Source: a virus. Taken from it: DNA of 64,000 nucleotides. Of the stretch, positions 2,130 through 47,533 are shown piece by piece. Numbering within the stretch: the stretch's first letter is position 1; each line of letters opens with the position of its first letter. Under the pieces are notes generated by a model, which saw nothing but the letters and a program-made list of their open reading frames with translations, made no database searches and had not been told where the DNA came from. Location of the stretch: the IMG/VR virus record IMGVR_UViG_3300008108_000067, positions 26,890 to 90,889 of that record; one strand, given 5' to 3'. The position numbers were made by a program, and so were the translations under genes.

Positions 2130-3716
2130 TTATCCTAGTAACCACGATATATTTTCCTTCTTACCACCAATTTCCATTTCATATGGATTGTGTGTAACAT
2201 GCTTATTTGTGTACACCATACCTTCTACACTATACCTTGTCTTGTCCAATGTTAACTTCGTCAGTTCTATACCCTCCTGGCGCAACCTGAGGGCGGTGTC
2301 CCGTACCCATAGACCTATACACAATGCCATCGTCAAGTCATCGTTATAACCAGATAATGCTTCTGGTCTACCGTTCTTCCAAATAAAAGTATCTAATTCG
2401 GCGCACATACGAGATGACCGAATAGTAAAACTATTTTCTAACATATATTCTTTTAATCGTGCGATAACCAACGGACGAGTTCTTTGCGAGGTGGTGAACC
2501 CAGGTACCATATTTCGTTCTTCACGATAATACTTTCCGGTCATTTGATGCTCGACATCCACATATTGTAAATCTTTGGACATATAAAAGAGATTTTTATA
2601 TCCTCGGTCTATAACTTGTTGTATTGCGTTCCATCCTATACTACTATTTTCTGGGATGAGTAGTGCATCATTGTATTCTGTTGCGATGGACACCAACATA
2701 TTACCAAACTGTTTGGTTTCTACCTTTCCTTTATATTCTGCCACTTGGGTTGACGTTTCTACATCAATCACATGAAATGCGGAATAGTCCTCACCATCTC
2801 CACGAGATACGTCAGCCGAAACAATATAGGATTTCCCGGATTGTGGGTACTCCCATATCCATAAGTTTCCATCAAACCCACCCTTACTAATAGGTTCTTT
2901 CACAAACGTGGATTTGTAGAATTCAATAATTTCTGGTGGGACAACTGTATTACCTGAGAATATAAACGAGGCATCATGTTCTTGTGCTGCCTGCATTTCA
3001 CCAAGAATTTCTGTTTGACGGTCACGCCATGCCTGGTCACGTTCTGGATGTACTTGCCAATCCAACAAGATTGGATTAAATTCGTTTGCTTGACTTTCTG
3101 CTTGTTGCCACATCTTGTGGAAGAAGTTACCCACACCGTTTGGAGTGGAAATAAGAATAGCTTTTCCACCCGTGGATAACGTACTTGATGCTGCCGTCCA
3201 GATAATGTCGGCGTTATCAATAAATGCACACTCGTCAAGAATCAATAGAGACAATGCTTCGGAACGTCCAGCGTCTTTACTACTTGCCACAGCTTTAATC
3301 TGTGACCCGTTGGTAAATTGTAATGACAGTTTATTATCTGTTAATATTTCACCACGTAACCACACAGGAAGGTTTTGATGCATAAAACGAACTTTGGTTA
3401 CTAAGTTTTTTGCAGTTTCTTGCTTGGTTGCGATAACAAGAATATTCTTGTCTTTGTGAAACAACATCAACCACAACGCATACCCCGCAACTAATGTAGA
3501 GAAACCTAACTGACGCCCTTTAAGTACAATGTTATATCGGTTTTCTTCAAACTCTCCCATCGCCTTTGCTTGGTATGGATATAAGTCAAACAACACCCGA
3601 CCACGAATCGGGTGTTGAATATACGAATATTTAGATAAAAAGTACTCAGGCTGGAGTGCGCACTTTTTATATTCTTCTTTAATACGTTCACGTAACTGTT
3701 GTGCTGTTGTATTCAT
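2130..3716 (-). CDS. terL: Terminase large subunit (T4 gp17-like)
   Basis: Walker A KGRQLGFST, Walker B LLILDECAF, coupling motif ISTPNG, RNase H nuclease SADVSRGDGEDYS and DDLTMA. Confidence 0.95.
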   Translation of the reverse strand: MNTTAQQLRERIKEEYKKCALQPEYFLSKYSYIQHPIRGRVLFDLYPYQAKAMGEFEENRYNIVLKGRQLGFSTLVAGYALWLMLFHKDKNILVIATKQETAKNLVTKVRFMHQNLPVWLRGEILTDNKLSLQFTNGSQIKAVASSKDAGRSEALSLLILDECAFIDNADIIWTAASSTLSTGGKAILISTPNGVGNFFHKMWQQAESQANEFNPILLDWQVHPERDQAWRDRQTEILGEMQAAQEHDASFIFSGNTVVPPEIIEFYKSTFVKEPISKGGFDGNLWIWEYPQSGKSYIVSADVSRGDGEDYSAFHVIDVETSTQVAEYKGKVETKQFGNMLVSIATEYNDALLIPENSSIGWNAIQQVIDRGYKNLFYMSKDLQYVDVEHQMTGKYYREERNMVPGFTTSQRTRPLVIARLKEYMLENSFTIRSSRMCAELDTFIWKNGRPEALSGYNDDLTMALCIGLWVRDTALRLRQEGIELTKLTLDKTRYSVEGMVYTNKHVTHNPYEMEIGGKKENISWLLG

Positions 3717-3724: not shown

Positions 3725-4360
3725 TTATTTGACTACAAGGACTCCCGATACTACACCGACTCCGATACCAACCAAAAATGACATTTTACGACTTGGTAAC
3801 TTGATACCAAACATACGGTTGGGATTTTTTGGTGCTTGTGGGATATTAATAACTACTTTTTGTAAACTATCCCGTGATGTTGTAAGTAATAAAATAGCGT
3901 TATCTTTGTTTTTTAATGCTCGTTCCAACTCAGATACTTGCGATGCTTGGGTTTCAATTGTAATTTCTTGTTGTGCAATAATAGAATCTTTCACTGGTAG
4001 TATTGCTCGTGCCAATTCCAGTGTGTCTGTTATTGTTTTCGACATTGTTGCCGCTACAGTTTTTAAATTAGTAGTGGATGTTCGAAGTTCAACAACTTGT
4101 GACCCCAGAACTTTTGCACGTGACTCCGCCGCACGAGCTTCATTTTCTTCTATTGTAATTTGTGTTTTTAAACTATCTGCAAAATGTATAGCAGAATCAG
4201 CTTGTGCTTGAAACTTTTTATATTCCGCTATATACTTGTCCATTTCATCTTGCTTAGCAGATGTTGTAACACAATACGATAATGATGCAATTACCGATAT
4301 TATTACGATAGACTTAGTTGTTTTCAGTATATGCGGGATCACCAAATTTACCCGTTTCAT
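3725..4360 (-). CDS. Membrane-anchored coiled-coil protein (N- and C-terminal hydrophobic segments; possibly spanin-like)
   Basis: Hydrophobic IVIISVIASLSY, heptad-rich middle, C-terminal FLVGIGVGVVSGVLVV. Confidence 0.55.
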   Translation of the reverse strand: MKRVNLVIPHILKTTKSIVIISVIASLSYCVTTSAKQDEMDKYIAEYKKFQAQADSAIHFADSLKTQITIEENEARAAESRAKVLGSQVVELRTSTTNLKTVAATMSKTITDTLELARAILPVKDSIIAQQEITIETQASQVSELERALKNKDNAILLLTTSRDSLQKVVINIPQAPKNPNRMFGIKLPSRKMSFLVGIGVGVVSGVLVVK

Positions 4361-4931
4361 CGAATTCTCCGGCTTCGACCTTTATTAAATGGTCTTTGAG
4401 TTTTTGTATTTCTTCTTCTAAATCTCTTCGAACAGTAGTTAAATCAACATTCCATTTTTCAATCATCAAAATCTTTTCTTGGTCTGCATGAATAAATTCT
4501 GGTTGTGATAGATTTTCGTGGTAATTTTGAAGTTCTTGTATTCTATCTTTTACCCAGGCAATATGATTTTGTTTACCTTTTTCTACAATTGTTTCTACCC
4601 ATTTACCCTGACGTTTTAATTCCATCTCTTCTCTTTCTATACAATTATAACAAACACCACGTTTTTTATAAGCTTTTAGATGAACACCATTCAAGGGAGT
4701 GTCGCACTTTGGACACCACCACGGCGTTTTAAAACCATCCAGTTTAGTGACCGATTGGATTAATCCATTTTTCCTAGTCCACTTTGTACCATTTACATCC
4801 ACCCACACTTCACCTTCTTTTCGTTCAACTTGTTTCGGTGTCCAACCAAACGTAAGTTTTTGTTCCTGCTTGTTCATTACTTCACCAATTTTTCTTCTTA
4901 CGTTCTTCATTGCATCTTCATTTGTTGCCAT
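4314..4931 (-). CDS. Hypothetical zinc-finger protein
   Basis: CPKC...CYNC; GAGG SD upstream. Confidence 0.7.
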   Translation of the reverse strand: MATNEDAMKNVRRKIGEVMNKQEQKLTFGWTPKQVERKEGEVWVDVNGTKWTRKNGLIQSVTKLDGFKTPWWCPKCDTPLNGVHLKAYKKRGVCYNCIEREEMELKRQGKWVETIVEKGKQNHIAWVKDRIQELQNYHENLSQPEFIHADQEKILMIEKWNVDLTTVRRDLEEEIQKLKDHLIKVEAGEFDETGKFGDPAYTENN

Positions 4932-4940: not shown

Positions 4941-7793
4941 TCAGTTTGATATTGCTTTTTTAACTATACTCATTGCTGCGGTATATACTGGTTCTTTTTT
5001 ATCGTATTTTAACGCGGTTCCTACAAATATATCTCTATCCGTTTTTGGATTTCTAACTTTCTGTTTTAATACCTTTGCCAAAGTTTGACGTTTTGCCGGT
5101 GGTACGTTTGATACCATATCTTTGGGTGATTTTGTCGGTGTAACTTTTGGCTTTTGTTTCATTTTTGGAGCAGTTACATCTTTACCATGTGTCTGCGTCA
5201 ACTTCAAAGCTTCCTCTGAATCTGTTGTTACTTTAACAATTTTATCAAAGATTTTTTTGTCAAATTTACCGTATACTTTGGTAAATATTTCTTGCTTTGC
5301 TCTATCTGTTATGTTTGGATTTCCCATAACAGACCGAAGTTGTGTACCACTAATATTTTTACCATCAATTTGTAGTTGCATCTCAGGAGCAACTATAAAG
5401 TATCCTTGATCTGCGTATCCTTTGAGGTCTTTTTCTGGTACTTCTTCGTATGGTTTGAAATATTTTCCTCCCAACCGGTCAGCATCTTTTTGACTGACTG
5501 CTGTAACGTACACCGCGTCTGGTGGTAATTTACTTAATACTTCCGATGGTGCGTATGGATTTTTAACTTGTATTACGTTATCGTCTGGTATTCCAAACAT
5601 ACGAGTCATAATTTCTTTTTTGTCTTTGAACCCGAACGGTGATTTGGTTGCATCGGTTTTATCGCTCGATGCGATATATACATTATCTTTACCAAATTTC
5701 TTTACCATTGCTTGATAGATACTATAATGTCCAGCATGAAATGGTTGAAATCTTCCGGTAAATATAGCAGCAATTTTACGTTCCCCAACAGGTGTGGGTT
5801 CTGTCTTTTGCGCTTCCGGTTCTTTCTTTGGTTCTTCTACTGGTGCTTCTTCGGCTTTACCCTTCGCAAACTTCAAAGTTCCTAAAATTTGATTTACTGG
5901 TGCGAATGTACCTGTAAATTTATATGGTTTGCCGTTATATATAAACACCAATCCTTCTGATGGTACGACATTATCAATACCAATATCGTCCAATCGTTCA
6001 ATTTGTGTTTGTAGTTTTGCAAGTTTATTTATATCGTCTGTATCTTGTAGAGACTTAATAGTATCTAATAATTCTTTCTTCAACGATGCAGTTAATTCTG
6101 GATTGTTTGCCGATAACGTATTGGTAACACGACGAAGTGTATCAGCTCCTACTTTCAGAAAAATACTTTCTAATGGGCGTGTAACAGCTCGTTCCGAATT
6201 CGTTAATTCAGTTGCTTCAAATTGCCTAAACCATTTTTTGGTTTCTGGATCTTCAAAGTCCTTAACTCCAATAGCTTTCTTGTCTCCCGTTGCCCATCGT
6301 TTAACCAATCCATTAAATTGTTCTTCCGATAATTCCAATCCTTGTGTTTCTACTTGTCTGGTAAGTTCTCTTTCCCACCATGCTATTTTATAATCTTCCA
6401 AGGTATTTTTATCGTCAAGATCAAATTCTTGTTGTAGTCGTGTCAATGCTGCACCATACTCTTGCATTTTTTCTTTATTACGAGCAGTATCTGCGTCGCT
6501 AAATGCAATACTACGTGGTCCAGATATACCAAACGTTTTTTGTTGCTGTGCGTTTACTTTTGTAATTTGATCAGAAAGTTTTTTACTATCCTCTATATCA
6601 CGACCAATTTCGTTTCCTTCTTCGTCGTATTTAACAGTTCCATGAAATACCAAAACACTCTTGTCGTATGGTATAACGTTCTTTGTGTCTGGAAATATTA
6701 TCTCAACGTTCATAAATTTTGAACCGTCAGCAAACATCTGATCACGTTCTTCTTGTGGTAAAGCTTGAATAGCTTTAGTGATATCATCCGCAGCACCACC
6801 AAAAGCTTTTTCAACGTTACCTCGTCCGGCAAACATCTGTCGTAAATCTGCCGCAGGTAGTGCGTTTTTTGCTTTATTTTTTACTTGGCCTTTATTACGA
6901 GCAAAAACAACTTGACCATCTCTAACAGAAAACATGATATTTTGTCCATCAAGTTTTTCTGTGACAGGTGCTTCCGCATCTAACCCACCTACCAATCCAC
7001 GTTTAATCATTTCTTTTACATCAGAAAACTTTAATGTATCATCTTCATACGGATGTGCTAAATGTCCTGCCGCACCACCCTCAGATATTAATTGCCATGG
7101 ACCATTAGGAACATTACCTTCATATAGTTCAGAAAGATAAACATATTCTAAGCCTTCATTCTTTTTATCTCGTCCGTGGTCTTTACGAGCAAGTTTCCAG
7201 TTACCATTTTTTGCACCATTGGGATGATGTACATCATGGTTTTTCATTTTTGATTTGCCGTACTTCTTAACTGCCTTTTTGCGGTCACGGTTACGGGCAA
7301 CACGGTCATCCTGAGTCTTTTTAAGGTAGTTACGAACTTTTTCGGGATGACGGCGATTGTATCTCCGCATTCGTTCCGTGCTTGATAGTGCTTCATTATT
7401 GATGAATTCATCATCATGCTCCGGTCCAATAGAGTAAGGGTATGCAAATGCATTATCTTTATTTTGTGGTTTAATTTCATCCACTCCACCTTCACCTGCA
7501 CCTGTCTCTCCACCAGTATCACCGCTGTCTGTTGGTGGTGTTGTTGGTTCTTCTGCTGGTTGTTCACCAGTTTTTATTACACGAGGATATAATGGATAGA
7601 AAAATCCATAATTTTTTATTTTTTCTTTTGCTTTTTTACGCTTCTTCTTCATCTCATCCATTGAATCTGTGTGATTAATGGTTAGTTCACCAACAAGTTC
7701 TGGTGCCAACTTCGCAACCAAAAAATTATGTTGGTCAACATATTCATTTTCATTCAATATATTTTCAAATAAATTATTTATTGGATTACTCAT
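4941..7793 (-). CDS. Multidomain protein: HNH-like insert, ligase-like KxDG domain and HIGH-type (cytidylyltransferase-like) nucleotidyltransferase
   Basis: DVHHPNG; EKLDGQN...NVEII...VFHG...SEGLVF...YKF; FTGRFQPFHAGH...ISGTQLR. Confidence 0.7.
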   Translation of the reverse strand: MSNPINNLFENILNENEYVDQHNFLVAKLAPELVGELTINHTDSMDEMKKKRKKAKEKIKNYGFFYPLYPRVIKTGEQPAEEPTTPPTDSGDTGGETGAGEGGVDEIKPQNKDNAFAYPYSIGPEHDDEFINNEALSSTERMRRYNRRHPEKVRNYLKKTQDDRVARNRDRKKAVKKYGKSKMKNHDVHHPNGAKNGNWKLARKDHGRDKKNEGLEYVYLSELYEGNVPNGPWQLISEGGAAGHLAHPYEDDTLKFSDVKEMIKRGLVGGLDAEAPVTEKLDGQNIMFSVRDGQVVFARNKGQVKNKAKNALPAADLRQMFAGRGNVEKAFGGAADDITKAIQALPQEERDQMFADGSKFMNVEIIFPDTKNVIPYDKSVLVFHGTVKYDEEGNEIGRDIEDSKKLSDQITKVNAQQQKTFGISGPRSIAFSDADTARNKEKMQEYGAALTRLQQEFDLDDKNTLEDYKIAWWERELTRQVETQGLELSEEQFNGLVKRWATGDKKAIGVKDFEDPETKKWFRQFEATELTNSERAVTRPLESIFLKVGADTLRRVTNTLSANNPELTASLKKELLDTIKSLQDTDDINKLAKLQTQIERLDDIGIDNVVPSEGLVFIYNGKPYKFTGTFAPVNQILGTLKFAKGKAEEAPVEEPKKEPEAQKTEPTPVGERKIAAIFTGRFQPFHAGHYSIYQAMVKKFGKDNVYIASSDKTDATKSPFGFKDKKEIMTRMFGIPDDNVIQVKNPYAPSEVLSKLPPDAVYVTAVSQKDADRLGGKYFKPYEEVPEKDLKGYADQGYFIVAPEMQLQIDGKNISGTQLRSVMGNPNITDRAKQEIFTKVYGKFDKKIFDKIVKVTTDSEEALKLTQTHGKDVTAPKMKQKPKVTPTKSPKDMVSNVPPAKRQTLAKVLKQKVRNPKTDRDIFVGTALKYDKKEPVYTAAMSIVKKAISN

Positions 7794-9648: not shown

Positions 9649-12600
9649 TCACGATTGGATATAGGAGAATCCGTCCTCTCTTTTTATCTCAATTAAATTG
9701 TCCACCATATCTCTAGCCGCATCCAAATGACTGATGACAATAAGGAAATCGAATTGAGTTTTGAGAATACCGAACATCGTATGCATTGAACTTAAATTTT
9801 CCGCATCAAGAGTACCCAATCCTTCATCAATAATCATAAAGTTAGACTTTGGTAAGTTTGAAGCGTTCATCAATGCCACACGGATAGCCAAACTACTGAT
9901 GAACCGTTCCATACCCGACGAGTTTTCCAACGGCCAGATACGGTCATAATCGTAGTTTAATTTACCCACGATGTTTTTTCCATCCACTTCGAGAGAAATA
10001 GTAAAGTCCACTATTTGTGACAGAATATTGTTAATTTCTGCCTCAATATTTGGTATAGCTTTACTCATCAAGTCGTACGGAATACCATCACGACCAACAG
10101 CTTCCATATAATACTTATATGCTTCGTAAGTATTCTCCAACTCTTCGGCTTCCTTAATCTGGTTCATAATATCGGTCTTGGTGGCTTCCAGTACCTTGAC
10201 CTCACCGTGAAGTTCACGGATAACCTTTTCCATATGGTCAGCCTTCTTCTTTGCCGATGCAATATCGTGTTCGACAAAAGAGATTTGCTTATCAATATCT
10301 ACATTATGTTCGATATTTTCTTTGTTCAACCGATGAAGTTCAATATCATTTTCTATTTGTTCCCGCTTACGGTCACACTTTTCGATGTTGGTAATCAACT
10401 TCTGGATTTCCAGTTCAACTCCACTTGCATTCTTTTGAAGCTGTTGGACTTCGGTTTGTAACTTTTCATAACTTACACAAAGATTGACCTTCTCGACCAA
10501 CGGTTCCATCTGCTCCTTAATTGTGGTAAGGGCATCTTCTTGGTCAAATCGGAGTCTATCCAACTGTACCAGTTCTGCGTTTACTTGGTCCTTATCAGCG
10601 ATAACTGACTTATTGTTTTCTACACACACCAAACAGTCTGAATTGTACTTGTACCCAGATAACTTCTGCTGGAACTTCTCCTTCTCAGTAATCTTGGAAA
10701 CGGTAAGTTTCAATGCAGATGACCCCTTGTTAAATAATCCAGTTAATCTCTCGTATTCACTTACCGCCTGCTTTAGTTCTGGAATATTTGCCTCTACCAC
10801 CCGATGTGTCTTTTCAGTGATGTTCTGGTTGAGCAGTTTTAGTCGTTCCTCTGCTTCCGTTTTTTGTTGTTCGTAGGTTGCAGACAATTCTATGGTCTTG
10901 TCTTTGTTTGATAAGAGTGTATCAATGTCTAGTTCAATATTTGGAACAGGACGTTTCTTATCTTGGAATTCCTTTAATTTTTCATAAAAAGTTTCTTGTT
11001 CTTGTTTGAGCCTTGTAAATATACCTTCAATCCGTTCATGCTCCTCACGAGTCGTATCCAACTTGGTCTGAGTATCCGATAAAGTTTGGGTAAAATCTAT
11101 CTTCTTAAACTTACGAAGTGCCCCAGAAATTTCCTTCATCTCATCATTTGCTGTGTCACATAACTTATCAAAGATACTTAATCCCATAAACTGAATGAGA
11201 AGGTCTTTACGTTCAGAATGTGACTTATCAATAAACAATGCGTTACTAGTTTGACCACTTAATGCAGTCAAGACGAAATCTTCATAACTACCAACATAAT
11301 TACGAATGTTGGCATTAGTATCACGACGGTCCTCACCATTGAGTGAAGTATGTGTTCCGTCCTCGTTTTCCTTCCAGAACAAGACATCTACCTTGACATC
11401 ACCATTCTTCTTACGAGTTCCAGTTCTACGGATGTAGAATATTTCATCGTTGATTTCAAACTTTAATTGACAGGTGAATTCGTTTTTACGGTTGTTCATG
11501 ATGTGGTCACCACGGAACGCACGTGGTGTCTTGTCGTAAAGACAGAAGATGAGTGCATCCATTGAAGAACTCTTTCCCGTTGCGTTCTGAGCAAACACTC
11601 CGTATATTCCCTTCATCTTCCCAAAGTTAATCACATTGTCCTCACCATAGGAGAACATATTAGAAAACTTTAATTGAATAGGACGCCAATGTACATTTCT
11701 AGAATGATCATCGTGACTAATTTGTGCATTGAGATTTTTATTAACATCCAAAATTTTTGTCATCAATGGACGGTCAATTGTATTATCATACTGACGTTCC
11801 AACCAATCTTGAATGAGTTGGTTCTGTATGTTTAGATTGTTTACATCAACAATATCTGATCCACTCTTAATTTTGTCACGATTGGTATTATCGGTTCTGG
11901 ACTTGTTAATGCTTAGTTCAATAATATTATATTGTTTGCGTAGTGTTGCTACTACCTTCTTAACACCAGAATTATCAAGAGTTCCCGTAAAAAGTCGCAT
12001 GCGAACATTTTTTGGAACATCCGTAGGGAATGGTAATTTTCCATTCTTAACTTCCAACGTATAATATCCATAATTATTTTGTAATGACTTGAATTCATGT
12101 GTGCATGCACTGACATCCCACATACACCAACCGTGATTATCTACCGTTTCTCCGTGGTTCTGCTGAATGAGTGAGGATGCGTACACTATAATTGGTTTCT
12201 TTGCGTGTACATCTCGTTCTTGTAGTATCTGGTATTTGTGGATGTCACCCAACAGTACCATATCAAATCCGTTGAACAATGATGTTTCAACGTGACGGTT
12301 AGTAATTACGTACCGTGCATCGGTTTGTGCACCGTGTACTGGTCCGTGGTATAATGCAATCTTACGGCGACCCTCACAATCCTTTACGGAAGGCCACTGT
12401 TCTCTATCATCCAAAATGGAAAATACAGCAAAATCAGTATCACCAACTTGATAGATACCAGAATGTTTTAGATAGTGTAATTGTTCGTGGTTAATACTTT
12501 TGATTAGTGGTGTCAAACTATCCAATCGGTTCATATTGGACAGATTCAAATCGTGATTACCAGCAATCACTAAGGTGGGAGCTATGTTAGCTAGGTTCTT

Positions 12601-12828
12601 TAAAAACTCCGTTGCCATCATCACCATTTCAGGACTCATGTCCGTCTTTGCGTGCAGAATATCACCAGCAACAACAATAACCGAGTCAGTCAAATCTTCT
12701 TGACGTAACTGGTTATATAGTGTTTCAAAACATTCCCGATATTCATCGTGTCGTTTAAATAGTCGTATATGAATATCCGCAAGGTGTACAATTTTATTAA
12801 GCTTGTTAATACCAGCGATATGTGTCAT
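9649..12828 (-). CDS. Fused Mre11/SbcD nuclease and Rad50/SbcC ATPase (gp47-gp46-like recombination nuclease)
   Basis: Phosphoesterase motifs DIH, GD, GNHD, HG and GDIH; Walker A NATGKSS; CxxC hook CLVC; signature SSGMERF; Walker B IIDEG; D-loop GTLD; H-loop ISH. Confidence 0.93.
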   Translation of the reverse strand: MTHIAGINKLNKIVHLADIHIRLFKRHDEYRECFETLYNQLRQEDLTDSVIVVAGDILHAKTDMSPEMVMMATEFLKNLANIAPTLVIAGNHDLNLSNMNRLDSLTPLIKSINHEQLHYLKHSGIYQVGDTDFAVFSILDDREQWPSVKDCEGRRKIALYHGPVHGAQTDARYVITNRHVETSLFNGFDMVLLGDIHKYQILQERDVHAKKPIIVYASSLIQQNHGETVDNHGWCMWDVSACTHEFKSLQNNYGYYTLEVKNGKLPFPTDVPKNVRMRLFTGTLDNSGVKKVVATLRKQYNIIELSINKSRTDNTNRDKIKSGSDIVDVNNLNIQNQLIQDWLERQYDNTIDRPLMTKILDVNKNLNAQISHDDHSRNVHWRPIQLKFSNMFSYGEDNVINFGKMKGIYGVFAQNATGKSSSMDALIFCLYDKTPRAFRGDHIMNNRKNEFTCQLKFEINDEIFYIRRTGTRKKNGDVKVDVLFWKENEDGTHTSLNGEDRRDTNANIRNYVGSYEDFVLTALSGQTSNALFIDKSHSERKDLLIQFMGLSIFDKLCDTANDEMKEISGALRKFKKIDFTQTLSDTQTKLDTTREEHERIEGIFTRLKQEQETFYEKLKEFQDKKRPVPNIELDIDTLLSNKDKTIELSATYEQQKTEAEERLKLLNQNITEKTHRVVEANIPELKQAVSEYERLTGLFNKGSSALKLTVSKITEKEKFQQKLSGYKYNSDCLVCVENNKSVIADKDQVNAELVQLDRLRFDQEDALTTIKEQMEPLVEKVNLCVSYEKLQTEVQQLQKNASGVELEIQKLITNIEKCDRKREQIENDIELHRLNKENIEHNVDIDKQISFVEHDIASAKKKADHMEKVIRELHGEVKVLEATKTDIMNQIKEAEELENTYEAYKYYMEAVGRDGIPYDLMSKAIPNIEAEINNILSQIVDFTISLEVDGKNIVGKLNYDYDRIWPLENSSGMERFISSLAIRVALMNASNLPKSNFMIIDEGLGTLDAENLSSMHTMFGILKTQFDFLIVISHLDAARDMVDNLIEIKREDGFSYIQS

Positions 12829-39830: not shown

Positions 39831-39863
39831 TAAAGTTTATGTAGTTTTAAATTAGTTTATAAG

Positions 39864-39936
39864 AGCCACGAATCGGGTTTGAACCGATGCGCTCCCGCTT
39901 ACAAGGCGGGTGCTCTACCAGCTGAGCTATCGTGGC
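39864..39936 (-). tRNA. tRNA-Thr(TGT)
   Basis: Cloverleaf; anticodon arm CCCGC-CTTGTAA-GCGGG. Confidence 0.93.
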
Positions 39937-39941
39937 GTTTA

Positions 39942-40026
39942 CGGACAGGGAGGGATTCGAACTCTCGGAACCTTTCGGTTCGACGGTTTTCAAGACCGTT
40001 GCAATAGACCACTCTGCCACCTGTCC
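39942..40026 (-). tRNA. tRNA-Ser(TGA)
   Basis: ACGGT-CTTGAAA-ACCGT; long variable arm; G73. Confidence 0.93.
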
Positions 40027-40034
40027 CGAAATAA

Positions 40035-40119
40035 AATAAGAACGCTCCCTATCAAACAGTTACCTGTTCTTCCTGCCACCACAACAAGTGCGCCACACTA
40101 CGCACGGGATGTTCTTATT
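40035..40119 (-). ncRNA. Candidate structured RNA between tRNA-Gly and tRNA-Ser
   Basis: Terminal stem AATAAGAAC..TCCC/GGGA..GTTCTTATT; GTGCG/CGCAC hairpin; AACAG-GTAA-CTGTT GNRA hairpin. Confidence 0.5.
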
Positions 40120-40123
40120 AAAA

Positions 40124-40196
40124 TGGAGCGGTCTGCCAGAGTTGAACTGCTCTTGTAAGCTGGAAGCTTACCGTGCTGACGTTACACTAAGACCGC
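40124..40196 (-). tRNA. tRNA-Gly(TCC), imperfect T-stem, encoded CCA
   Basis: GTAAG-CTTCCAG-CTTAC; acceptor GCGGTCT/AGACCGC; only 3 clean T-stem pairs. Confidence 0.7.
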
Positions 40197-40202
40197 GTGT
40201 TG

Positions 40203-40391
40203 TTACTTGGCTGCTGGACCTTCCTTTGGGGTGACCACGGTTGTGTCTGCTGCCTTGATTGAATCGGTGTTCAACTTAGTTGAATCAACTACCACTACGG
40301 TACTATCAGTGGTAACTTCACCCTGAACTTCTTCTGTCTTGGCACATGCCGTCAAACCAACTACTGCTACTGTAAGGATAAACTTGTACAT
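40203..40391 (-). CDS. Small lipoprotein
   Basis: Signal peptide with lipobox LTAC; GGAG SD before ATG 40391. Confidence 0.75.
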   Translation of the reverse strand: MYKFILTVAVVGLTACAKTEEVQGEVTTDSTVVVVDSTKLNTDSIKAADTTVVTPKEGPAAK

Positions 40392-40452
40392 TATGTACGC
40401 TCCATAAAATGAATAATGAAACAACCATTTAAAAATACTACGATACTACAAG

Positions 40453-40523
40453 TTGCCCTCCATGGAATCGAACCACGATTCGCTGATCCAAAGTCAGCTG
40501 TATTGCCATTATACGAGAGGGCA
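40453..40523 (-). tRNA. tRNA-Gln(TTG)
   Basis: GCTGA-CTTTGGA-TCAGC; U1-A72. Confidence 0.92.
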
Positions 40524-40524
40524 A

Positions 40525-40609
40525 TGGTGGGAAGGGGATTGATAGATTCCACTCTATCCAGCACCCCACGGACTAGAACCGTTTCCCATGCTGTTGCAAC
40601 ATTCCACCA
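40525..40609 (-). ncRNA. Candidate tRNA-like RNA with rearranged arms, ending in ACCA
   Basis: T-loop-like hairpin ACGG-TTCTAGT-CCGT precedes D-loop-like GATAGA-GTGGAA-TCTATC; 3' end TTCCCACCA. Confidence 0.5.
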
Positions 40610-40700
40610 AGTTGCCAAGCGTGTACACCCGCGTTGTATACACAAAACGGTAGAGTTCATTAATTAACGTCAGACCACTCTACCAAGCTGACGGGATCAA

Positions 40701-40793
40701 TTAGTGATTACGCTTACGATTCTTCCAACGATTTCTTCGTTTTTTCGAACCGACCTTTCTCCGACCTTTACCGCACTTTTTAGGATGTGGCAT
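40701..40793 (-). CDS. 30-aa highly basic peptide MPHPKKCGKGRRKVGSKKRRNRWKNRKRNH
   Basis: Manual translation; GGAG SD upstream. Confidence 0.65.
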   Translation of the reverse strand: MPHPKKCGKGRRKVGSKKRRNRWKNRKRNH

Positions 40794-40808
40794 CTCGTTC
40801 TCCAAAAA

Positions 40809-40882
40809 TGGTCCCTGAGGGACTTGAACCCCCGCACTTCGAATTATGAGTTCGCTGCTCTAACCGACTGAGCTAAGGGACC
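40809..40882 (-). tRNA. tRNA(CAT), probably Ile2 (lysidine type)
   Basis: Loop CTCATAA; body GGTCCCTTAGCTCAG resembles bacterial tRNA-Ile2. Confidence 0.8.
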
Positions 40883-40927
40883 GATAACTTCTATACAAGA
40901 GTTACTATTGAAAATTTACATAACCAG

Positions 40928-41001
40928 TCCGCCCCGCAGGACTTGAACCTGCACATCTTCGGTATATAAGACCGCTGCTGTCACCATTTAGCTAGAGGCG
41001 G
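40928..41001 (-). tRNA. tRNA-Ile(TAT)
   Basis: Anticodon arm GCGGT-CTTATAT-ACCGA; acceptor CCGCCTC/GGGGCGG; A73. Confidence 0.85.
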
Positions 41002-41016
41002 ATAATTCTATTTTAG

Positions 41017-41088
41017 TACCGCGTACGGGAATCGAACCCGTCTTACCAGAGTGAAAGTCTAGCGTCCTAGCCGATAGACGAACGCGGC
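41017..41088 (-). tRNA. tRNA-Glu(TTC)
   Basis: CTAGA-CTTTCAC-TCTGG. Confidence 0.93.
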
Positions 41089-41105
41089 ATCACATCAACA
41101 TTAAA

Positions 41106-41134
41106 AATATACATAGTCTGTTACTGTTTGTCAA
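41106..41134 (-). promoter_or_regulatory. Sigma70-type promoter TTGACA-N17-TATATT
   Basis: Immediately upstream of tRNA-Glu. Confidence 0.8.
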
Positions 41135-41147
41135 GCCTTGAATGATA

Positions 41148-41660
41148 TCAAAATCCCCGATATGCCATAATATTAGTTATTTTTTCACCAACTACACTAA
41201 TACTATCTACTACCTTTACTTTTTTATCATCCAAATATACTGTAATTTCATTTACCGATGTTCTGTTATTTTCACCGGAATTATTTACAACAATTCGAAT
41301 TGATTTAAATTGTTCAAATAATTTTCGGTTTTCTTCCAATACAGCTACTTTACCAGTAAATACATTTTCGTTCCATTCCGACAGTACTACATCATCTGCG
41401 TATAGTGTACTTAATCGTTTTAAATCTTTTGCAGAAAATGCATCGAAGTATTCTTTTACTATGTTTCCAATAGGTTTTTCTCTACTTAGTGGAAACAACA
41501 ACCACGCAACTAAATACACAGTAACAATTGGAAGTGGTGAAAAGAAAGAACAAATAAATACAAATCGGATGAATACAGGATCTATATTTAATTGCTCACC
41601 AATTCCTCCGCAAAATCCAGCAAGTCTTTTATTGGTTGCACTACGATAAAATTTTCTCAT
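41148..41660 (-). CDS. PspC-domain and NTF2/SnoaL-like fusion protein
   Basis: FYRSATNKRLAGFCGGIGEQLNIDPVFIR (PspC); YFDAFSAKDL...LYADDV (SnoaL-like). Confidence 0.8.
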   Translation of the reverse strand: MRKFYRSATNKRLAGFCGGIGEQLNIDPVFIRFVFICSFFSPLPIVTVYLVAWLLFPLSREKPIGNIVKEYFDAFSAKDLKRLSTLYADDVVLSEWNENVFTGKVAVLEENRKLFEQFKSIRIVVNNSGENNRTSVNEITVYLDDKKVKVVDSISVVGEKITNIMAYRGF

Positions 41661-41676
41661 ATATTCTCCTAGTTAG

Positions 41677-41750
41677 TCGGGGCGGAGGGATTTGAACCCC
41701 CGACCTCCTGCTCCCAAAGCAGGCGCGATACCAGGCTACGCTACGCCCCG
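41677..41750 (-). tRNA. tRNA-Pro(TGG)
   Basis: CCTGC-TTTGGGA-GCAGG. Confidence 0.95.
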
Positions 41751-41753
41751 AAG

Positions 41754-41834
41754 TGCTCTCGGTGAGACTCGAACTCACAAGCCTTGCGGCAGCAGTTTTT
41801 GAGACTGCCATGTATACCATTCCATCACAAGAGC
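41754..41834 (-). tRNA. tRNA-Leu(CAA)
   Basis: GCAGT-CTCAAAA-ACTGC; long variable arm. Confidence 0.93.
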
Positions 41835-41871
41835 GTTCATTACTTCCATTCATTCATTAACATTTTAAATG

Positions 41872-42098
41872 TGTAGTACAGCGGGAAAGGTGTTGTCCTG
41901 CAATCGGGTGATGAGTAGTTGCAACTCTTATCTGTGTATCGTCGTTATTCATCCTCAACTCAATGGAGTTGTTATCGGATATTTTTCTGCACGACCACCC
42001 CTATACATCGTCGTTATTCATCCTAACCCCAGGGGGTTTTCATCAGACGCCTTTCCATACGACCACTAACCGGCTAAGAGCCGTCCTGCTGTACTACA
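41872..42098 (-). ncRNA. Candidate 227-nt structured RNA with two tandem homologous domains
   Basis: 15-bp terminal stem; 18-nt direct repeat at 41938 and 42007; covarying internal hairpins. Confidence 0.65.
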
Positions 42099-42169
42099 TG
42101 GCTCGCTTGGGAGTCGAACCCAACTTTCTAGGTTATGATCCTAGCGTGACACCAGTTCACTTGCCAGCT
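42099..42169 (-). tRNA. Atypical or degenerate tRNA(CAT)
   Basis: CTAGG-ATCATAA-CCTAG; canonical T-arm; acceptor has A1-C72 and G5-G68 mismatches. Confidence 0.6.
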
Positions 42170-42217
42170 ACTGAAATTCTACACCTTGCCATATATTCAA
42201 TGATTTCCTTATTTTCA

Positions 42218-42246
42218 AGTATAATCAATGCTTCTTCTAATGTCAA
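42218..42246 (-). promoter_or_regulatory. Sigma70-type promoter TTGACA-N17-TATACT
   Basis: Upstream of the atypical tRNA(CAT) and the 227-nt RNA. Confidence 0.7.
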
Positions 42247-42366
42247 GTATTTAATTACCATAATATTCTCGTGTTGTAAAACATAACGACAGGACTTACG
42301 ACATAAGACATTCCATTCTTTCTGTTCGCCTACTACCAGTGGGTTGGTGGTTATCGTTATGTTTAG

Positions 42367-42438
42367 AGCACGTGGCGGGAATCGAACCCGCGTCTCTAGC
42401 TTGGAAGGCTAGGATAATAGCCATTATATGACACGTGC
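42367..42438 (-). tRNA. tRNA-Gly(TCC)
   Basis: CTAGC-CTTCCAA-GCTAG. Confidence 0.92.
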
Positions 42439-42537
42439 GGCGAGGTCTTTTTCACGCAGTTCCTCATCTTCGGTCTGGCACGATTCCAGACGAGTTGCGC
42501 TTGCTTTTAAGCTGCTTTCAACCCCCACAACTATTTT

Positions 42538-42747
42538 TTATTCAGAAAAATACTTATTCAAAGTTTCTAACTTATCATCGGCATCAACAAGCATCTGTAA
42601 TGCTTCTTCTGCATTCTTATAAAAATCACCAGTAGAATGGTCACCAATCCCAACAGGAACATTCATCAACAAGTCCAGTGAGAGAAGTGCCTTCTGTCGT
42701 TCTGCTTCTGCTTGCGTTCGTAACATTTCAACTACACGTGCTTTCAT
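42538..42747 (-). CDS. Small hypothetical protein (PVGIGDHS motif)
   Basis: GGAGG SD before ATG 42747. Confidence 0.75.
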   Translation of the reverse strand: MKARVVEMLRTQAEAERQKALLSLDLLMNVPVGIGDHSTGDFYKNAEEALQMLVDADDKLETLNKYFSE

Positions 42748-42767
42748 AATAACCTCCATTAGTAAAA

Positions 42768-42841
42768 TGGACGCTGAGGGATTCGAACCCCCGACATTTT
42801 GCGTGTAAAGCAAACACTCTAACCAGCTGAGTTAAGCGTCC
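42768..42841 (-). tRNA. tRNA-Val(TAC)
   Basis: TTTGC-TTTACAC-GCAAA. Confidence 0.93.
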
Positions 42842-42938
42842 GTTGTTGTCTATGAAGCCCTTTCACAAAATGTCGGACAACGCGACTACCGAGCGCAAGT
42901 ATACGCGTATCAAGCTGGGCCGCCCTCGGAATTAAAAA

Positions 42939-43011
42939 TGGATCCAGTCGGGATCGAACCGACGACCTTTCGCTTGCAAAGCGGATGCTCTCCCAGCTGA
43001 GCTATGGACCC
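42939..43011 (-). tRNA. tRNA-Ala(TGC)
   Basis: G3-U70; loop TTTGCAA. Confidence 0.94.
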
Positions 43012-43577
43012 GTGTTGTACGGAATTAAATTTAACAAGTATTCCTGATTTGTCAAGAACCATTCATACGTTAAATTTTCTGGTATTTCTATTAATTGGTT
43101 TTGACCACGTTCTAAAATGGTTAATCCCAACTCTATGTTAAATGTTTTAACAGAAAAATCTGTACGTTGACTTCTGAATTTTGCTACTGCTTTCCACACA
43201 TCTCCTGTCCACAATCCACGTTCACATAATTCTGTGTGGTGTGGCATTGGTGAACGTTGCATCAATTCGGTATGTGGTTTTGTATCGTGAACAAATATGA
43301 TACCATTATCATTTAGATGTCGAATGCTGTTATCTATATCTCTTAGGACTTGATTACATTCGTGGTCACCATCAATGAAAATAATATCATACATTTCGGT
43401 ACAGTTTTCAAAAAACTCATCAGATGTCATAGGGTATAACATATCTTTGTTATATGGATCTACCCCGTGCTTGATTGCACATTCTACATTGTAAAATGTA
43501 CCACCGTTACTAACACCGATTTCTAAGTATCTTGTATAATTTCGTTCAGCAATTACAGAATTAAATAATTCAAACAT
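43002..43577 (-). CDS. Class I SAM-dependent methyltransferase (Methyltransf_24-like)
   Basis: YLEIGV, DIIFIDGDH, GIIFVHD, WTGDVWK; start at 43577 after the GGAG SD. Confidence 0.85.
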   Translation of the reverse strand: MFELFNSVIAERNYTRYLEIGVSNGGTFYNVECAIKHGVDPYNKDMLYPMTSDEFFENCTEMYDIIFIDGDHECNQVLRDIDNSIRHLNDNGIIFVHDTKPHTELMQRSPMPHHTELCERGLWTGDVWKAVAKFRSQRTDFSVKTFNIELGLTILERGQNQLIEIPENLTYEWFLTNQEYLLNLIPYNTGP

Positions 43578-43589
43578 ATTTTCTCCAAG

Positions 43590-43661
43590 AGCGAGAGATG
43601 GGATTCGAACCCACGACAACGTGCTTGGCAAGCACGGACTCTACCACTGAGCTACTCTCGC
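43590..43661 (-). tRNA. tRNA-Gly(GCC)
   Basis: CGTGC-TTGCCAA-GCACG. Confidence 0.93.
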
Positions 43662-43666
43662 ATTTA

Positions 43667-43831
43667 CTACACAGGACCAACTTCATAATGCGTCAATACT
43701 TTTCCTTTTAATGCTGCTTGTGCATCAACATCATTACGAAACATCGTAATAGCTGCCGTTGCTTCAGGTGCCATATATGTAAAATCCATACTACCACCAT
43801 CAAAATATATTTTTACTAAATATTTACTCAT
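43667..43831 (-). CDS. 54-aa hypothetical protein MSKYLVKIYFDGGSMDFTY...
   Basis: Manual translation; fills the gap between two tRNAs. Confidence 0.6.
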   Translation of the reverse strand: MSKYLVKIYFDGGSMDFTYMAPEATAAITMFRNDVDAQAALKGKVLTHYEVGPV

Positions 43832-43839
43832 ATAGTTAG

Positions 43840-43922
43840 TGCTCCTGGTCGGACTCGAACCGACAAGCCTTGTGAGCGAGAGATTTTAAGTCTCTTGTGT
43901 TTACCGATTTCACCACAGGAGC
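43840..43922 (-). tRNA. tRNA-Leu(TAA)
   Basis: AGAGA-CTTAAAA-TCTCT; long variable arm. Confidence 0.93.
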
Positions 43923-43937
43923 AAAATTGGATGAGTT

Positions 43938-44133
43938 GTTGTAGTATCCTCTCATTTTATAGAGAAGAATTTACCTATCATCATTAGTGCCATCCTCACT
44001 AATGTTTATCCATACACGTTGATTTCTACTTACGGACTCTTCCCCTGCACCGTTGTAGTGGTGTCTCGACGTAAGGATCATAGAGAAGTCGTGTGGCGCG
44101 GGTTTAAACCATACCGCGGGTAAATTCTACAAC
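43938..44133 (-). ncRNA. Candidate ~200-nt multibranched structured RNA
   Basis: Nested stems GTTGTAG/CTACAAC, AATTTACC/GGTAAATT, CGCGG/CCGCG, CACG/CGTG, CTTACG/CGTAAG, CATTAGTG/CACTAATG. Confidence 0.55.
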
Positions 44134-44158
44134 CACCTTTACATTTTTTAATCAGCAG

Positions 44159-44232
44159 TGCCCCCACTAGGACTCGAACCTAGAACTTACTGGTTAAAAG
44201 CCAGCTACTCTGACCAATTGAGTTATGGAGGC
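44159..44232 (-). tRNA. tRNA-Lys(TTT)
   Basis: GCTGG-CTTTTAA-CCAGT. Confidence 0.93.
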
Positions 44233-44249
44233 GTTTAACTTACACAAGT

Positions 44250-44278
44250 AATATATATTACCCACGTACAAATGTCAA
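44250..44278 (-). promoter_or_regulatory. Sigma70-type promoter TTGACA-N17-TATATT
   Basis: Immediately upstream of tRNA-Lys. Confidence 0.8.
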
Positions 44279-44305
44279 GCCCCCAATCTAAATAAATAGT
44301 AAATA

Positions 44306-44419
44306 TTATTTTTTTCGTTTTTTTGGAGTCTTTTTTACGGTTGTAGATTTTACTTTTATTCTAGCTTGCCACGATTTCTTTGGTTTTCTCGTGTGTGACT
44401 TTCTTCGTGTCCATGCCAT
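44306..44419 (-). CDS. 37-aa highly basic peptide MAWTRRKSHTRKPKKSWQARIKVKSTTVKKTPKKRKK
   Basis: Manual translation; AGGAG SD upstream. Confidence 0.6.
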   Translation of the reverse strand: MAWTRRKSHTRKPKKSWQARIKVKSTTVKKTPKKRKK

Positions 44420-44439
44420 ATATACATTTCTCCTATTAA

Positions 44440-44526
44440 CGGAAGAGGTGGGATTCGAACCCACGGTAGGAATTACCCTACGGCTGTTTAGTAGACAGCT
44501 GCCTTAAACCACTCGGCCACCCTTCC
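44440..44526 (-). tRNA. tRNA-Ser(ACT), unusual A34 anticodon
   Basis: GCTGT-CTACTAA-ACAGC; Ser-type body with long variable arm and G73. Confidence 0.88.
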
Positions 44527-44531
44527 AACAC

Positions 44532-45557
44532 TCACTGATAATCAGCTCTCCAAACATTGCTTGTTTCTGAGTAACTTTCATTCAATATTTTTAACGAGTA
44601 TTCTACGTAATTATCACCATCAAACCAACCAGAACCCTTATGCTTAACCATATCTACATATCCACGAAGTTGAATTTTTGTGATATTATGGTTACCTGCT
44701 TGTAGAAAATATTGTACAGTTCCACCTTTATCGTGACTAATAGTTAATTGTAACTTATCACTTCCAAATTCTTTCCACAATTGTTCCAAATCTTCATGTT
44801 GTCCTTTATGTGCTTTAAATTCATTTGGATAATGACAAGAAATCCAATTAAATTTATGTAGATTAGCACATTCTCGTGACAATCCCACAAAATCATTTCT
44901 AACCTTTTGTTGTTGCAAATTAAAAACTAGTCGTGGATTGTTTATATAATGTTTATCCGATAATCGTTCGTTTACTGTTAATTTCCGTATCATATAATCG
45001 TATGTTAATGAATTTTCATCATATATGTCCATACGCACAGGTTCATCAAAGATATATTCTTTTTCTTTGTATCTGAAATTATACGGATACGCATCTCCAG
45101 CCAACGAAACAAATACAGAACGATTAACCGTTGTTAATCCTTGAATTGAGTCCAAATGATTTTTAAAATTTGGAAGAAACTCAATGTCGGTGTCGGTATG
45201 AAAAATCCAATCGGCATCAAAGAAATTATATTTTTTGGAATAGTCAAACATCATATTCATGTTTAACCCAATCTTTGCAAACCAATGTTGGCTTTTCATA
45301 AACTCTACTGATTTTTCTGGAAGTTCCATTTCATTAACATTACGAACTTCTACGATATCTTCCAATCCAAAATCTTTAACACGTTGCCACGTTAAACTAT
45401 CTTCTGATTTTTCTGGATTTGCATTGTTAAAAAGTATAACCTTAGTTTCAAAATGTGGAACTACGTTAACTTTTAAAGAAGCCAAATAAAGATTTATGTA
45501 TCGTAAATCTTCTTCTTCATTTGTTTTTCCACAAGTTGATAGTATCAAAATTTTCAT
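44532..45557 (-). CDS. Putative GT-A fold glycosyltransferase-like protein
   Basis: WIFHTDTDIEF DxD motif; start at 45557 after the GGAG SD. Confidence 0.5.
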   Translation of the reverse strand: MKILILSTCGKTNEEEDLRYINLYLASLKVNVVPHFETKVILFNNANPEKSEDSLTWQRVKDFGLEDIVEVRNVNEMELPEKSVEFMKSQHWFAKIGLNMNMMFDYSKKYNFFDADWIFHTDTDIEFLPNFKNHLDSIQGLTTVNRSVFVSLAGDAYPYNFRYKEKEYIFDEPVRMDIYDENSLTYDYMIRKLTVNERLSDKHYINNPRLVFNLQQQKVRNDFVGLSRECANLHKFNWISCHYPNEFKAHKGQHEDLEQLWKEFGSDKLQLTISHDKGGTVQYFLQAGNHNITKIQLRGYVDMVKHKGSGWFDGDNYVEYSLKILNESYSETSNVWRADYQ

Positions 45558-45572
45558 AATTTCTCCAAAATA

Positions 45573-45646
45573 CGGAATGGACGGGACTCGAACCCGCAAC
45601 CCCCGCAGTGACAGTGCGGTGCGCTAACCGATTGCGCCACCACTCC
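45573..45646 (-). tRNA. tRNA-Asp(GTC)
   Basis: CCGCA-CTGTCAC-TGCGG. Confidence 0.94.
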
Positions 45647-45655
45647 CAGCAACAA

Positions 45656-45913
45656 TTATTTAATTTTACTCTGCGTTACTGTTTCGTAAAGTTTTTCAAA
45701 CTCTTGATGCGTTGCTACTTCGTCATCAAAATTCTGCTTGTGATACGTCTTTGCTAACTTACGAAAAACTTTCTTGTTAAGTTGAAGTTCTTCACAGATA
45801 TCATTGATAATGTTTTTCTGTAAGTCTCGTTCTGCGGAAATTCGTGTCATAGATACACTCATATCCTTTAATGCACCTTCCAACTTCAACTTGTCATTCG
45901 GTGTTAAATTCAT
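45656..45913 (-). CDS. Double-stranded DNA-binding protein (T4 DsbA / GapR-like)
   Basis: SMTRISAERDLQKNI...KKVFRKLAKTYHKQNF...FEKLYE. Confidence 0.75.
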   Translation of the reverse strand: MNLTPNDKLKLEGALKDMSVSMTRISAERDLQKNIINDICEELQLNKKVFRKLAKTYHKQNFDDEVATHQEFEKLYETVTQSKIK

Positions 45914-45955
45914 AATAACCTCGTTGTTGTGATGTTGTAAATAAAATGTTTTTCG

Positions 45956-47529: not shown

Positions 47530-47533
47530 AGAG

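Follow-up and report, generated by a model that had tools for sequence, protein, structure and literature searches.

We analysed a window of 64,000 nucleotides, the whole stretch of DNA studied here (positions 26,890 to 90,889 of the IMG/VR virus record IMGVR_UViG_3300008108_000067, from a large T4-like phage), and observed that an open reading frame (ORF) of 950 amino acids (aa) on its minus strand encodes a fusion of two predicted enzymes. The central domain of the protein is, on the evidence of a structural model, a covalent lysine nucleotidyltransferase with an RNA-ligase-type fold, in a clade outside the catalogued Rnl1-Rnl6 families. The C-terminal domain is, by homology, a HIGH-signature adenylyltransferase most like the archaeal/NadM nicotinamide mononucleotide (NMN) adenylyltransferases (NMNATs). 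As judged from sequence, the ligase-like and NMNAT-like domains travel together across most of a very large phage family, in either order. We lean, a little beyond an even chance, towards a multi-enzyme protein that mends cut RNA such as tRNA and is possibly carried in the capsid; its activities are predicted from homology and structure prediction. The ORF was confirmed exactly at window positions 4941-7793, and the parts that carry the finding are the following.

4941..7793, minus strand: the whole ORF, 950 aa, stop codon included; it has a near-identical cluster, P0002, in the protein collection.
5859..7079, minus strand: RNA-ligase-like covalent nucleotidyltransferase domain, residues 239-645, starting with GGAxGHxxHP(F/Y)(E/D)D (alignment, AlphaFold2 model, fold searches).
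6939..6959, minus strand: motif I, EKLDGQN, residues 279-285, with K280 as the predicted AMP-accepting lysine; K, D and G are at least 90% conserved, and PF09414 matches here below threshold.
5982..6494, minus strand: helical insert, about 170 aa long, separating motif IIIa from motif IV, residues about 434-604 (model).
5910..5957, minus strand: motifs IV, EGLVF (613-617), and V, GKPYKFTG (621-628, K625); E, G and K are invariant or nearly so, and the motifs lie on strands of the model.
5223..5777, minus strand: HIGH-signature (HxGH ... ISGTxxR) NMNAT-like nucleotidyltransferase (NTase) domain, residues 673-857 (PF01467, phrog_395, family profile).

The first-pass annotation of this gene, made from the sequence alone, had read the KxDG nucleotidyltransferase motifs I, III, IIIa, IV and V in order in the central part, and this was correct. 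Motif III (NVEII) was found around E364, motif IIIa (LVFHG) around H384, and YKFTG of motif V at residues 624-628. In an alignment of 31 diverse relatives, the motif positions were invariant or at least 90% conserved. The stretches conserved at this level in the 31 members were GGAxGHxxHP, E-K-x-D-G-Q-N, A-R-N-K, F-x-G-R-G, the Glu of FMNxE, N-V-I-P-Y, F-H-G, P-x-E-G-x-V-F and K-x-T-G. The motif residues also lay on successive strands of the model in the expected order, with motifs IV and V on the model strands E390-395 and E398-402.

The AlphaFold2 model of the ligase-like domain, built on the family alignment, had a pLDDT of 89.4 and a pTM of 0.85. When it was compared with the PDB using Foldseek, an RNA ligase came first (Rnl3, 8ucg, E 7e-4, prob 0.97), and nearly the whole top 40 consisted of ligases or capping enzyme. 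We also ran a second structural search, independent of Foldseek, against 48,161 PDB representatives, and here the best 12 matches were all RNA ligases (Z 9.3-7.1). These included Trl1-LIG at Z 9.3 (214 residues aligned, root mean square deviation 5.3), NgrRnl at 9.1, T4 Rnl1 at 8.4, REL1 at 8.0 and T4 Rnl2 at 8.0, while DNA ligases (Z 5.5-7.7) and the capping enzyme 1p16 (Z 5.4) both ranked under the RNA ligases. A Foldseek search of BFVD returned the family's own members first, followed by named RNA ligases. The AlphaFold2 model and the two independent fold searches support the ligase fold, and RNA ligases head both searches. A model lacking this fold would have refuted the first-pass annotation, and this outcome did not occur.

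The long helical insert that had been read from the sequence is also real, and occupies about 170 residues between motifs IIIa and IV in the model. Its helices lie at model residues about 210-380, and only short helical-bundle matches to the PDB were obtained for it. Neither the model nor the sequence showed an oligonucleotide-binding (OB) domain or an appended C-terminal domain. About 20 residues past motif V the domain gives way to a linker in the present protein and to a stop codon in the stand-alone members.

Profile searches of this region gave little. Residues 239-645 had no match in Pfam, PHROG or NCBIfam, nor did anything from these collections match residues 1-672. The RNA_ligase family PF09414 scored 15.1 bits against a gathering threshold of 27 and covered motif I only, with sub-threshold matches at the same place in relatives; it was not listed for the whole 950-aa protein at E up to 1. 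Chance matches such as eS6 and TetR were all that came up when we searched PDB sequences with a ligase-domain profile.

The C-terminal enzyme was easier to place. The RFQPFHAGH nucleotidyltransferase signature noticed in the first reading (residues 681-689, with H686-A-G-H689) stands inside a PF01467 CTP_transf_like domain that scores 37.2 bits against a cut-off of 21 (E 4e-9); phrog_395 matches as well, and ISGTQLR begins at residue 814. Among 24 relatives, the last His of HxGH and the S..T..R residues were invariant. A profile of these 24 NTase domains searched against the PDB ranked archaeal NMNAT first (1f9a, 5.5e-10; 1ej2, 6.4e-10), NadM next (2qjt, 2.5e-7), then NadD and then PPAT. The nearest cultured-phage proteins outside the family were the KVP40 NatV-type NMNAT/Nudix enzymes, with about 30% identity. 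The thresholds of the NMNAT equivalog models were missed (NF002243, 28.1 bits against 127; TIGR01527, 25.9 against 181). Because these scores lie far under the NCBIfam cut-offs, we call the domain NMNAT-like and not a demonstrated NMNAT. Many marine relatives with the NTase domain first (L073, L033, L046 and others) have GRFQPFG(P/K)HH in place of GRFQPFHxGH, with the first His lost and SGTxxR kept.

We further estimated how widely the two domains occur. The ligase-like family comprised 1822 representative clusters (50% identity) in an exhaustive HMMER search, with E below 1e-30 in 587, and domain order was counted in the best 150 of the 1822. Both domains were present in one protein in 115 of these 150 clusters (77%), with the NTase first in 99 and the ligase first, as here, in 16. 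The ligase domain was found alone in the remaining 35, of which 12 were true stand-alone proteins. On the ligase-domain tree, the order had changed at least three times.

At least 597 IMG/VR loci carry the family. Among 185,579 species genomes it was found only on nine short contigs of metagenome-assembled genomes (MAGs), and as far as these surveys go, the ligase-like family is phage-restricted. The nine contigs (L089-L097) were binned as Pelagibacter, Flavobacteriales, Methanobacteriota and others, and these 'bacterial' and 'archaeal' copies are probably phage contigs mis-binned into MAGs. The copy on L089, from Lake Baikal, is 73% identical to ours, and this likeness hints at a freshwater origin of the phage. 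The family was present in three of 50,697 deposited phage genomes, among them Microcystis phage Mel-JY01, where the gene is annotated 'cytidylyltransferase like protein'; a megablast search of the 950-aa gene against the same 50,697 records gave no match. Our literature searches found no description of a fusion of RNA-ligase-like and NMNAT-like domains.

The tight pairing of the domains, seen in both orders, speaks for a chemical link over mere co-delivery and brings in an NAD-centred explanation. Here the ligase would take NAD+ as its adenylate donor, setting NMN free, and the NMNAT-like domain would remake NAD+ from this NMN and ATP, or the pair would rebuild NAD+ against a host defence. A NAD role had been suggested in the first reading, and its sole basis is the homology of the NTase domain, which is closest to NMNAT/NadM. 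The His/aromatic/acidic motif GHxxHP(F/Y)(E/D)D could bind the NMN moiety. We searched the phage record (90.9 kb, estimated to be 47% complete) for NadV, KptA/Tpt1 and RtcB and found none; NadV/Nampt was not found in the complete Mel-JY01 genome either. The ligase itself would thus be a local source of NMN. Against this explanation, we know of no NAD+-dependent RNA ligase, the NTase domain scores 28 bits where the NMNAT equivalog cut-off is 127, and HxGH is swapped for G(P/K)HH in many marine relatives. Moreover, an NMNAT alone cannot remake NAD+ from the nicotinamide and ADP-ribose that NADase defences leave. We consider the NAD-centred explanation unlikely.

The RNA-repair reading draws on the proteins that are fused to, or accompany, the two-domain core. 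In the relatives L076, L038 and L044 the core was fused to an AAA_33/Zeta-type P-loop kinase, which weakly matched phrog_505 'polynucleotide kinase' (E about 1e-4) and gave no informative match among PDB sequences. In another relative (L034) the core was fused to a CCA-adding tRNA nucleotidyltransferase (PF01743, E 5.7e-29; phrog_2244, 3.7e-58), and other relatives add zincin-type peptidase or PGDYG domains. The phage studied here encodes a 227-aa HAD phosphatase (DFDDT) among its head genes, outside the window (G000:C1:19627-20310, minus strand, which is L002:1489-2172). This phosphatase matched phrog_415 'polynucleotide kinase' (E 8e-7) and has at its end the 45-aa module that also closes the 950-aa protein.

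4944..5093, minus strand: C-terminal module of about 45 aa (…KVRNPKTDRDIFVGTALKYD…), also present in this phage's HAD phosphatase and, as a repeat between domains, in relatives.

The module has the consensus KxKNPxTGRDIxVxxALxY, is carried by only two proteins in the record, and had no Pfam or PHROG match. In a single relative protein it can occur up to four times between domains (for example P0141, 1441 aa), which marks it as a repeated adaptor or binding module and not a terminal signal. We prefer RNA repair mainly because a kinase, a phosphatase, a ligase and a CCA-adding enzyme are the components that tRNA repair calls for, T4 Pnkp/Rnl1 and Trl1 being examples. The 27 tRNA genes and the tmRNA of the window agree with this preference. 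The repair role put forward in the first-pass annotation thus receives indirect support, from the CCA-adding and kinase fusions of relatives and from the polynucleotide kinase (PNK)-type HAD phosphatase that shares the module.

These same partners bear on a different possibility, namely that the protein modifies RNA 5' ends (a capping-like reaction, 5'-adenylylation or NAD-capping of phage or host RNA) and joins no ends at all. Capping enzymes have the same fold (1p16, Z 5.4), and an NMNAT-type enzyme might join NMN to a 5'-triphosphate adenosine end. However, capping enzymes rank far below RNA ligases, the OB domain is missing, and kinase, phosphatase and CCA-adding partners suit end repair and not capping. 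We regard 5'-end modification as very improbable.

The position of the gene in turn raises the possibility of a phage DNA ligase that seals nicks in replication, recombination or before packaging. The gene order was found to be primase, fused SbcCD, a 606-aa ORF, the 950-aa gene, two small ORFs and the terminase large subunit (TerL), all on the minus strand, so the gene sits between SbcCD/primase and terminase. In 74 of 80 related loci the fusion gene lies just upstream of TerL, at a distance of 1-3 kb. The TerL of this phage shares 54% identity with its counterpart in Flavobacterium phage immuto and 52% with the Mel-JY01 protein; both phages are distant T4-like myoviruses. Canonical DNA ligases (PF01068, PF01653) were not found in the record or in complete Mel-JY01, and the core fold is common to both kinds of ligase (Z 5.5-7.7 for DNA ligases). 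However, the OB domain is missing, RNA ligases rank higher in every fold search, and the fusion partners are a CCA-adding enzyme and a PNK-like kinase. Phage immuto also lacks both the canonical DNA ligases and the ligase-like family, so this lineage can rely on host ligase, which argues against the DNA-ligase explanation. We give it only a slim chance.

Returning to RNA repair, we propose that K280 would take AMP and that the ligase domain would seal breaks in RNA, most likely in tRNA that host nucleases have cut. The ends would be healed by partners: the PNK-type HAD phosphatase in this phage and, in relatives, the P-loop kinase or CCA-adding enzyme fused to the core. The shared C-terminal module may dock the HAD phosphatase alongside the fusion protein. 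The NMNAT-like domain could supply or recycle a nucleotide cofactor, and formation of NAD+ from NMN and ATP is the reading closest to its homology; alternatively, it might adenylylate a terminal phosphate. More speculatively, a T4-type prohead protease may cut after ISE238 and free the basic N-terminal part from the enzyme core, and the head may take up the protein and deliver it along with the DNA.

A stronger version would make the protein family a seventh structural class of RNA ligase whose catalysis depends on the fused NMNAT-type partner, and which is freed by the protease, injected, and repairs tRNA before phage gene expression. It could work as an NAD+-dependent RNA ligase with NMN-to-NAD+ recycling, or as a ligase that receives ends already adenylylated by the HIGH domain. 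We think this full version improbable.

Two segments in the N-terminal part of the protein bear on capsid delivery.

7080..7088, minus strand: ISE, residues 236-238, an (L/I)xE directly before GGAAGH and a candidate prohead-protease site (41 of 41 close homologues).
7749..7793, minus strand: N-terminal leader, residues 1-15 (MSNPINNLFENILNE), with LFE at residues 8-10 conserved in 36 of 41 close homologues (alignment).

T4 gp21 cleaves after (L/I)xE. In the 41 close homologues we found LFE10 (36/41), LSE222 and ISE238 (41/41) to be conserved, and family-wide the residues before GGAxGH had L or I at P3 in 295 of 301 members and E at P1 in 269 of 301, with P2 free. The ISE stretch was conserved and yet had low pLDDT in the model. 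Stand-alone members have leaders of 7-38 residues that end exactly at (L/I)xE, and the phage encodes a gp21-type prohead protease (Peptidase_S77, 91.8 bits). The N-terminal leader, we infer, resembles T4 capsid-targeting leaders. The gene also keeps its place 1-3 kb upstream of TerL in 74 of 80 related loci. One paper reports a cytidylyltransferase, by its name a possible counterpart of the 950-aa protein, from purified virions of cyanophage S-CREM2 (PMC10665884); the same paper finds such detections frequent and cautions that abundant proteins may co-purify with virions. For virion packaging and protease maturation, which had been proposed at first reading, the conserved (L/I)xE, the conserved leader, the gp21-type protease and the S-CREM2 report are thus circumstantial evidence, and capsid delivery of the fusion protein is plausible. 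The proposed cleavage between the ligase and NTase domains found no support, as the xxE sites of that linker are kept in only 1-2 of 41 homologues, and a cut there was rejected.

Several observations weigh against capsid-delivered RNA repair as a whole. The fold alignments reach only the core of the domain, about 185-214 residues, and no significant hhalign or HMM (hidden Markov model) link was obtained from the ligase-like domain to any named ligase family. We know of no role for a HIGH nucleotidyltransferase in RNA repair. No PNK-type AAA_33 kinase was found in the 47%-complete record, and the genome-wide negatives for other repair genes span only half a genome. The synteny with TerL may be mere common descent, because the loci share TerL that is 54-89% identical. 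An N-terminal leader is missing from the HAD partner. The (L/I)xE may belong to the structure of the ligase domain, and a cut at this site would part the two enzymes in NTase-first relatives but leave them joined here.

The last of these points lead to a rival picture, that of an ordinary cytoplasmic enzyme which is neither cut by the protease nor packaged, and in which (L/I)xE is a structural or catalytic element of the domain. In addition to the missing leader of the HAD partner and the co-purification caution, the (L/I)xE is equally conserved in NTase-first relatives, where cleavage splits the pair, and in about 10% of members the E is replaced by M or C. On the other side, the stretch is conserved despite low model confidence, P3 and P1 are fixed with P2 free as in T4 gp21 sites, the leaders of the stand-alone members end exactly at (L/I)xE, and a gp21-type protease is present in the phage. 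The cytoplasmic picture comes close to an even chance.

The remaining segments of the protein are linkers and one conserved module.

7419..7611, minus strand: low-complexity linker rich in G, P, E and T, residues 61-125 (composition; poorly conserved).
7149..7391, minus strand: conserved basic module, residues 135-215, with a helical hairpin, a His-rich beta-hairpin and an H..N..H pattern (at least 90% conserved).
5778..5858, minus strand: E/K/P-rich linker, about residues 646-672 (composition; xxE sites not conserved).
5094..5222, minus strand: basic linker rich in K, P and T, residues 858-900 (composition).

The basic module had been called HNH-like in the first-pass annotation. The pattern exists, as HDVHHPNG..NG.W.LA.KDH at residues 186-207, and is at least 90% conserved in 107 close relatives. 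However, no Pfam HNH model matched the N-terminal part even at E up to 5, and no solved fold resembled the model of this module (pLDDT 80; a basic helical hairpin, a beta-hairpin and a short helix), the best matches being unrelated chains at Z 4.0. With neither an HMM nor a fold match, the HNH assignment of residues 135-215 was not adopted. The module has no Zn-binding cysteines. The acidic linkers ending in xxE described earlier were borne out in part: linkers exist and ISE238 is conserved, but residues 858-900 are basic and the xxE before the NTase domain is kept in only 1-2 of 41 homologues.

We also examined the neighbouring genes. The start ATG of the 950-aa gene overlaps the stop codon of the upstream 606-aa ORF (ATGA), and a 205-aa ORF starts nine bases downstream. 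The description of a late operon was not confirmed. The gene sits between SbcCD/primase and terminase on a strand that is the same throughout, with the ATGA overlap. The 205-aa protein directly downstream (window 4314-4931, minus strand) has a zinc-ribbon-like CPKC...CYNC pattern and no family match; 57 of 80 related loci have a homologue of it in the same position, and it could be an enzyme partner or a small terminase candidate. Just upstream of TerL, a 211-aa protein (window 3725-4360, minus strand) has hydrophobic segments at both ends and a coiled-coil middle; it had no family match and is kept only in closer relatives (17 of 80 loci). The fused SbcCD is a 1059-aa ORF (window 9649-12828, minus strand) that joins a calcineurin-like phosphoesterase (Mre11/SbcD-like) to an SMC/Rad50 (SbcC-like) ATPase. 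A cluster of 27 tRNA genes and a tmRNA (tag GNYTLALAA) was found within 14 kb at window 39863-54124 on the minus strand. Outside the window, two small head-module proteins (L002:2177-2743 and 2661-3041, minus strand) matched DUF3008 (E 9e-6) and an IrrE/M78-like zincin (E 5e-5), and zincin modules related to the latter appear fused in longer relatives of the fusion protein.

Together, these results indicate that the core observation is right and beyond chance, and that its interpretation is partly supported; the protein is a widespread phage variant of a known enzyme system, with a predicted activity. If the RNA-repair reading is true, aquatic T4-like phages would hold a new branch of RNA repair in this very abundant and so far unannotated enzyme pair, which has relatives among cultured cyanophages. 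The pair would combine an unusual ligase architecture with a partner enzyme never before tied to RNA ligation, and would add a concrete case to the capsid-delivered enzymes. Two cyanophage clusters long listed as 'core but unknown', T4-GC71 (DUF6267) and T4-GC190, would gain a function as well. New RNA ligases are useful in practice as reagents.

When we compared the ligase-like domain with Rnl1-Rnl6, the predicted nucleotidyltransferase core fold was the same, and motifs I (KxDG), III, IIIa, IV (EGxV) and V follow one another as they do there. Trl1-LIG, too, has a His in its motif IIIa (PMC6379707). What defines an RNA ligase family is a domain appended at the N or C terminus (PMC6379707), whereas the extra module here is the internal helical insert of about 170 aa between IIIa and IV. 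None of the family-specific domains was found, be it the C-domain of Rnl1, Rnl2, Rnl4 or Rnl6, the dimerisation domain of Rnl3 or the N-domain of Rnl5. Since Rnl1-Rnl6 are defined by appended domains that are absent here, the topology fits none of them. The domain also differs from them in having no significant sequence match, in its unique N-terminal GGAxGHxxHP(F/Y)(E/D)D, and in a motif V that reads KxxK instead of KxK.

At the level of systems, T4 Pnkp with Rnl1, Trl1 (LIG-KIN-CPD) and Clostridium thermocellum Pnkp-Hen1 likewise bring together a ligase, a P-loop kinase (here in relatives) and a HAD-type phosphatase (here a separate gene), and the setting here is a tRNA-rich phage. However, none of the three has a HIGH nucleotidyltransferase, which is the constant partner here, and the kinase is missing from the 950-aa protein and of weak PNK identity in its relatives. 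With NadM and the archaeal NMNATs, including KVP40 NatV, the C-terminal domain shares the GRFQPFHxGH, NPF-like and ISGTxxR motifs. Compared with NadM/NatV, the 950-aa protein is without a Nudix domain, the Nampt partner was not found, and the equivalog scores are far too low. Polyvalent phage proteins (PMC5512222) likewise have several unrelated enzymatic domains, metallopeptidases (in the longer relatives here) and a place near virion and packaging genes, but the ligase and NTase pair is not described in that paper, and the core domains form a constant pair and do not assort freely.

The same pairing was observed as adjacent genes in cyanophages, namely T4-GC71 (DUF6267) and the T4-GC190 'cytitidyltransferase'. 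In Prochlorococcus phage P-SSM4, the DUF6267 gene lies directly upstream of, and overlaps, the 'cytitidyltransferase' gene, and 469 phage records, most of them from cyanomyoviruses, have a DUF6267 homologue. The proteins of DUF6267 are shorter by about 100 aa and show HLEHPED, KWDG, HEGxV and YKLV in the same order. Our Foldseek search of BFVD matched the model to a 591-aa S-PM2 cytidyltransferase-like protein (E 2.4e-6, prob 1.0) and to a 728-aa metaG-MbCM1 protein (E 3e-4, prob 1.0), with the DUF6267 match lying under the latter gene. This 728-aa protein of the DUF6267 region (JN371769.1, H77; UniProt H8ZNG8) is labelled 'NrdB ribonucleotide reductase A subunit', which looks like a mis-annotation. 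The NTase profile matched T4-GC190 by hhalign at 87%. The DUF6267 HMM had no match to the 950-aa protein at E up to 1, and hhalign of the ligase domain against DUF6267, with one or six cyanophage sequences, was not significant. Membership in DUF6267, a lead from the ESM Atlas, was therefore rejected, and DUF6267 was kept as a relative at the level of structure and motifs. These comparisons lead us to conclude that the cyanophage T4-GC71/T4-GC190 pair, while not the same family, is the closest catalogued relative of the fusion protein.

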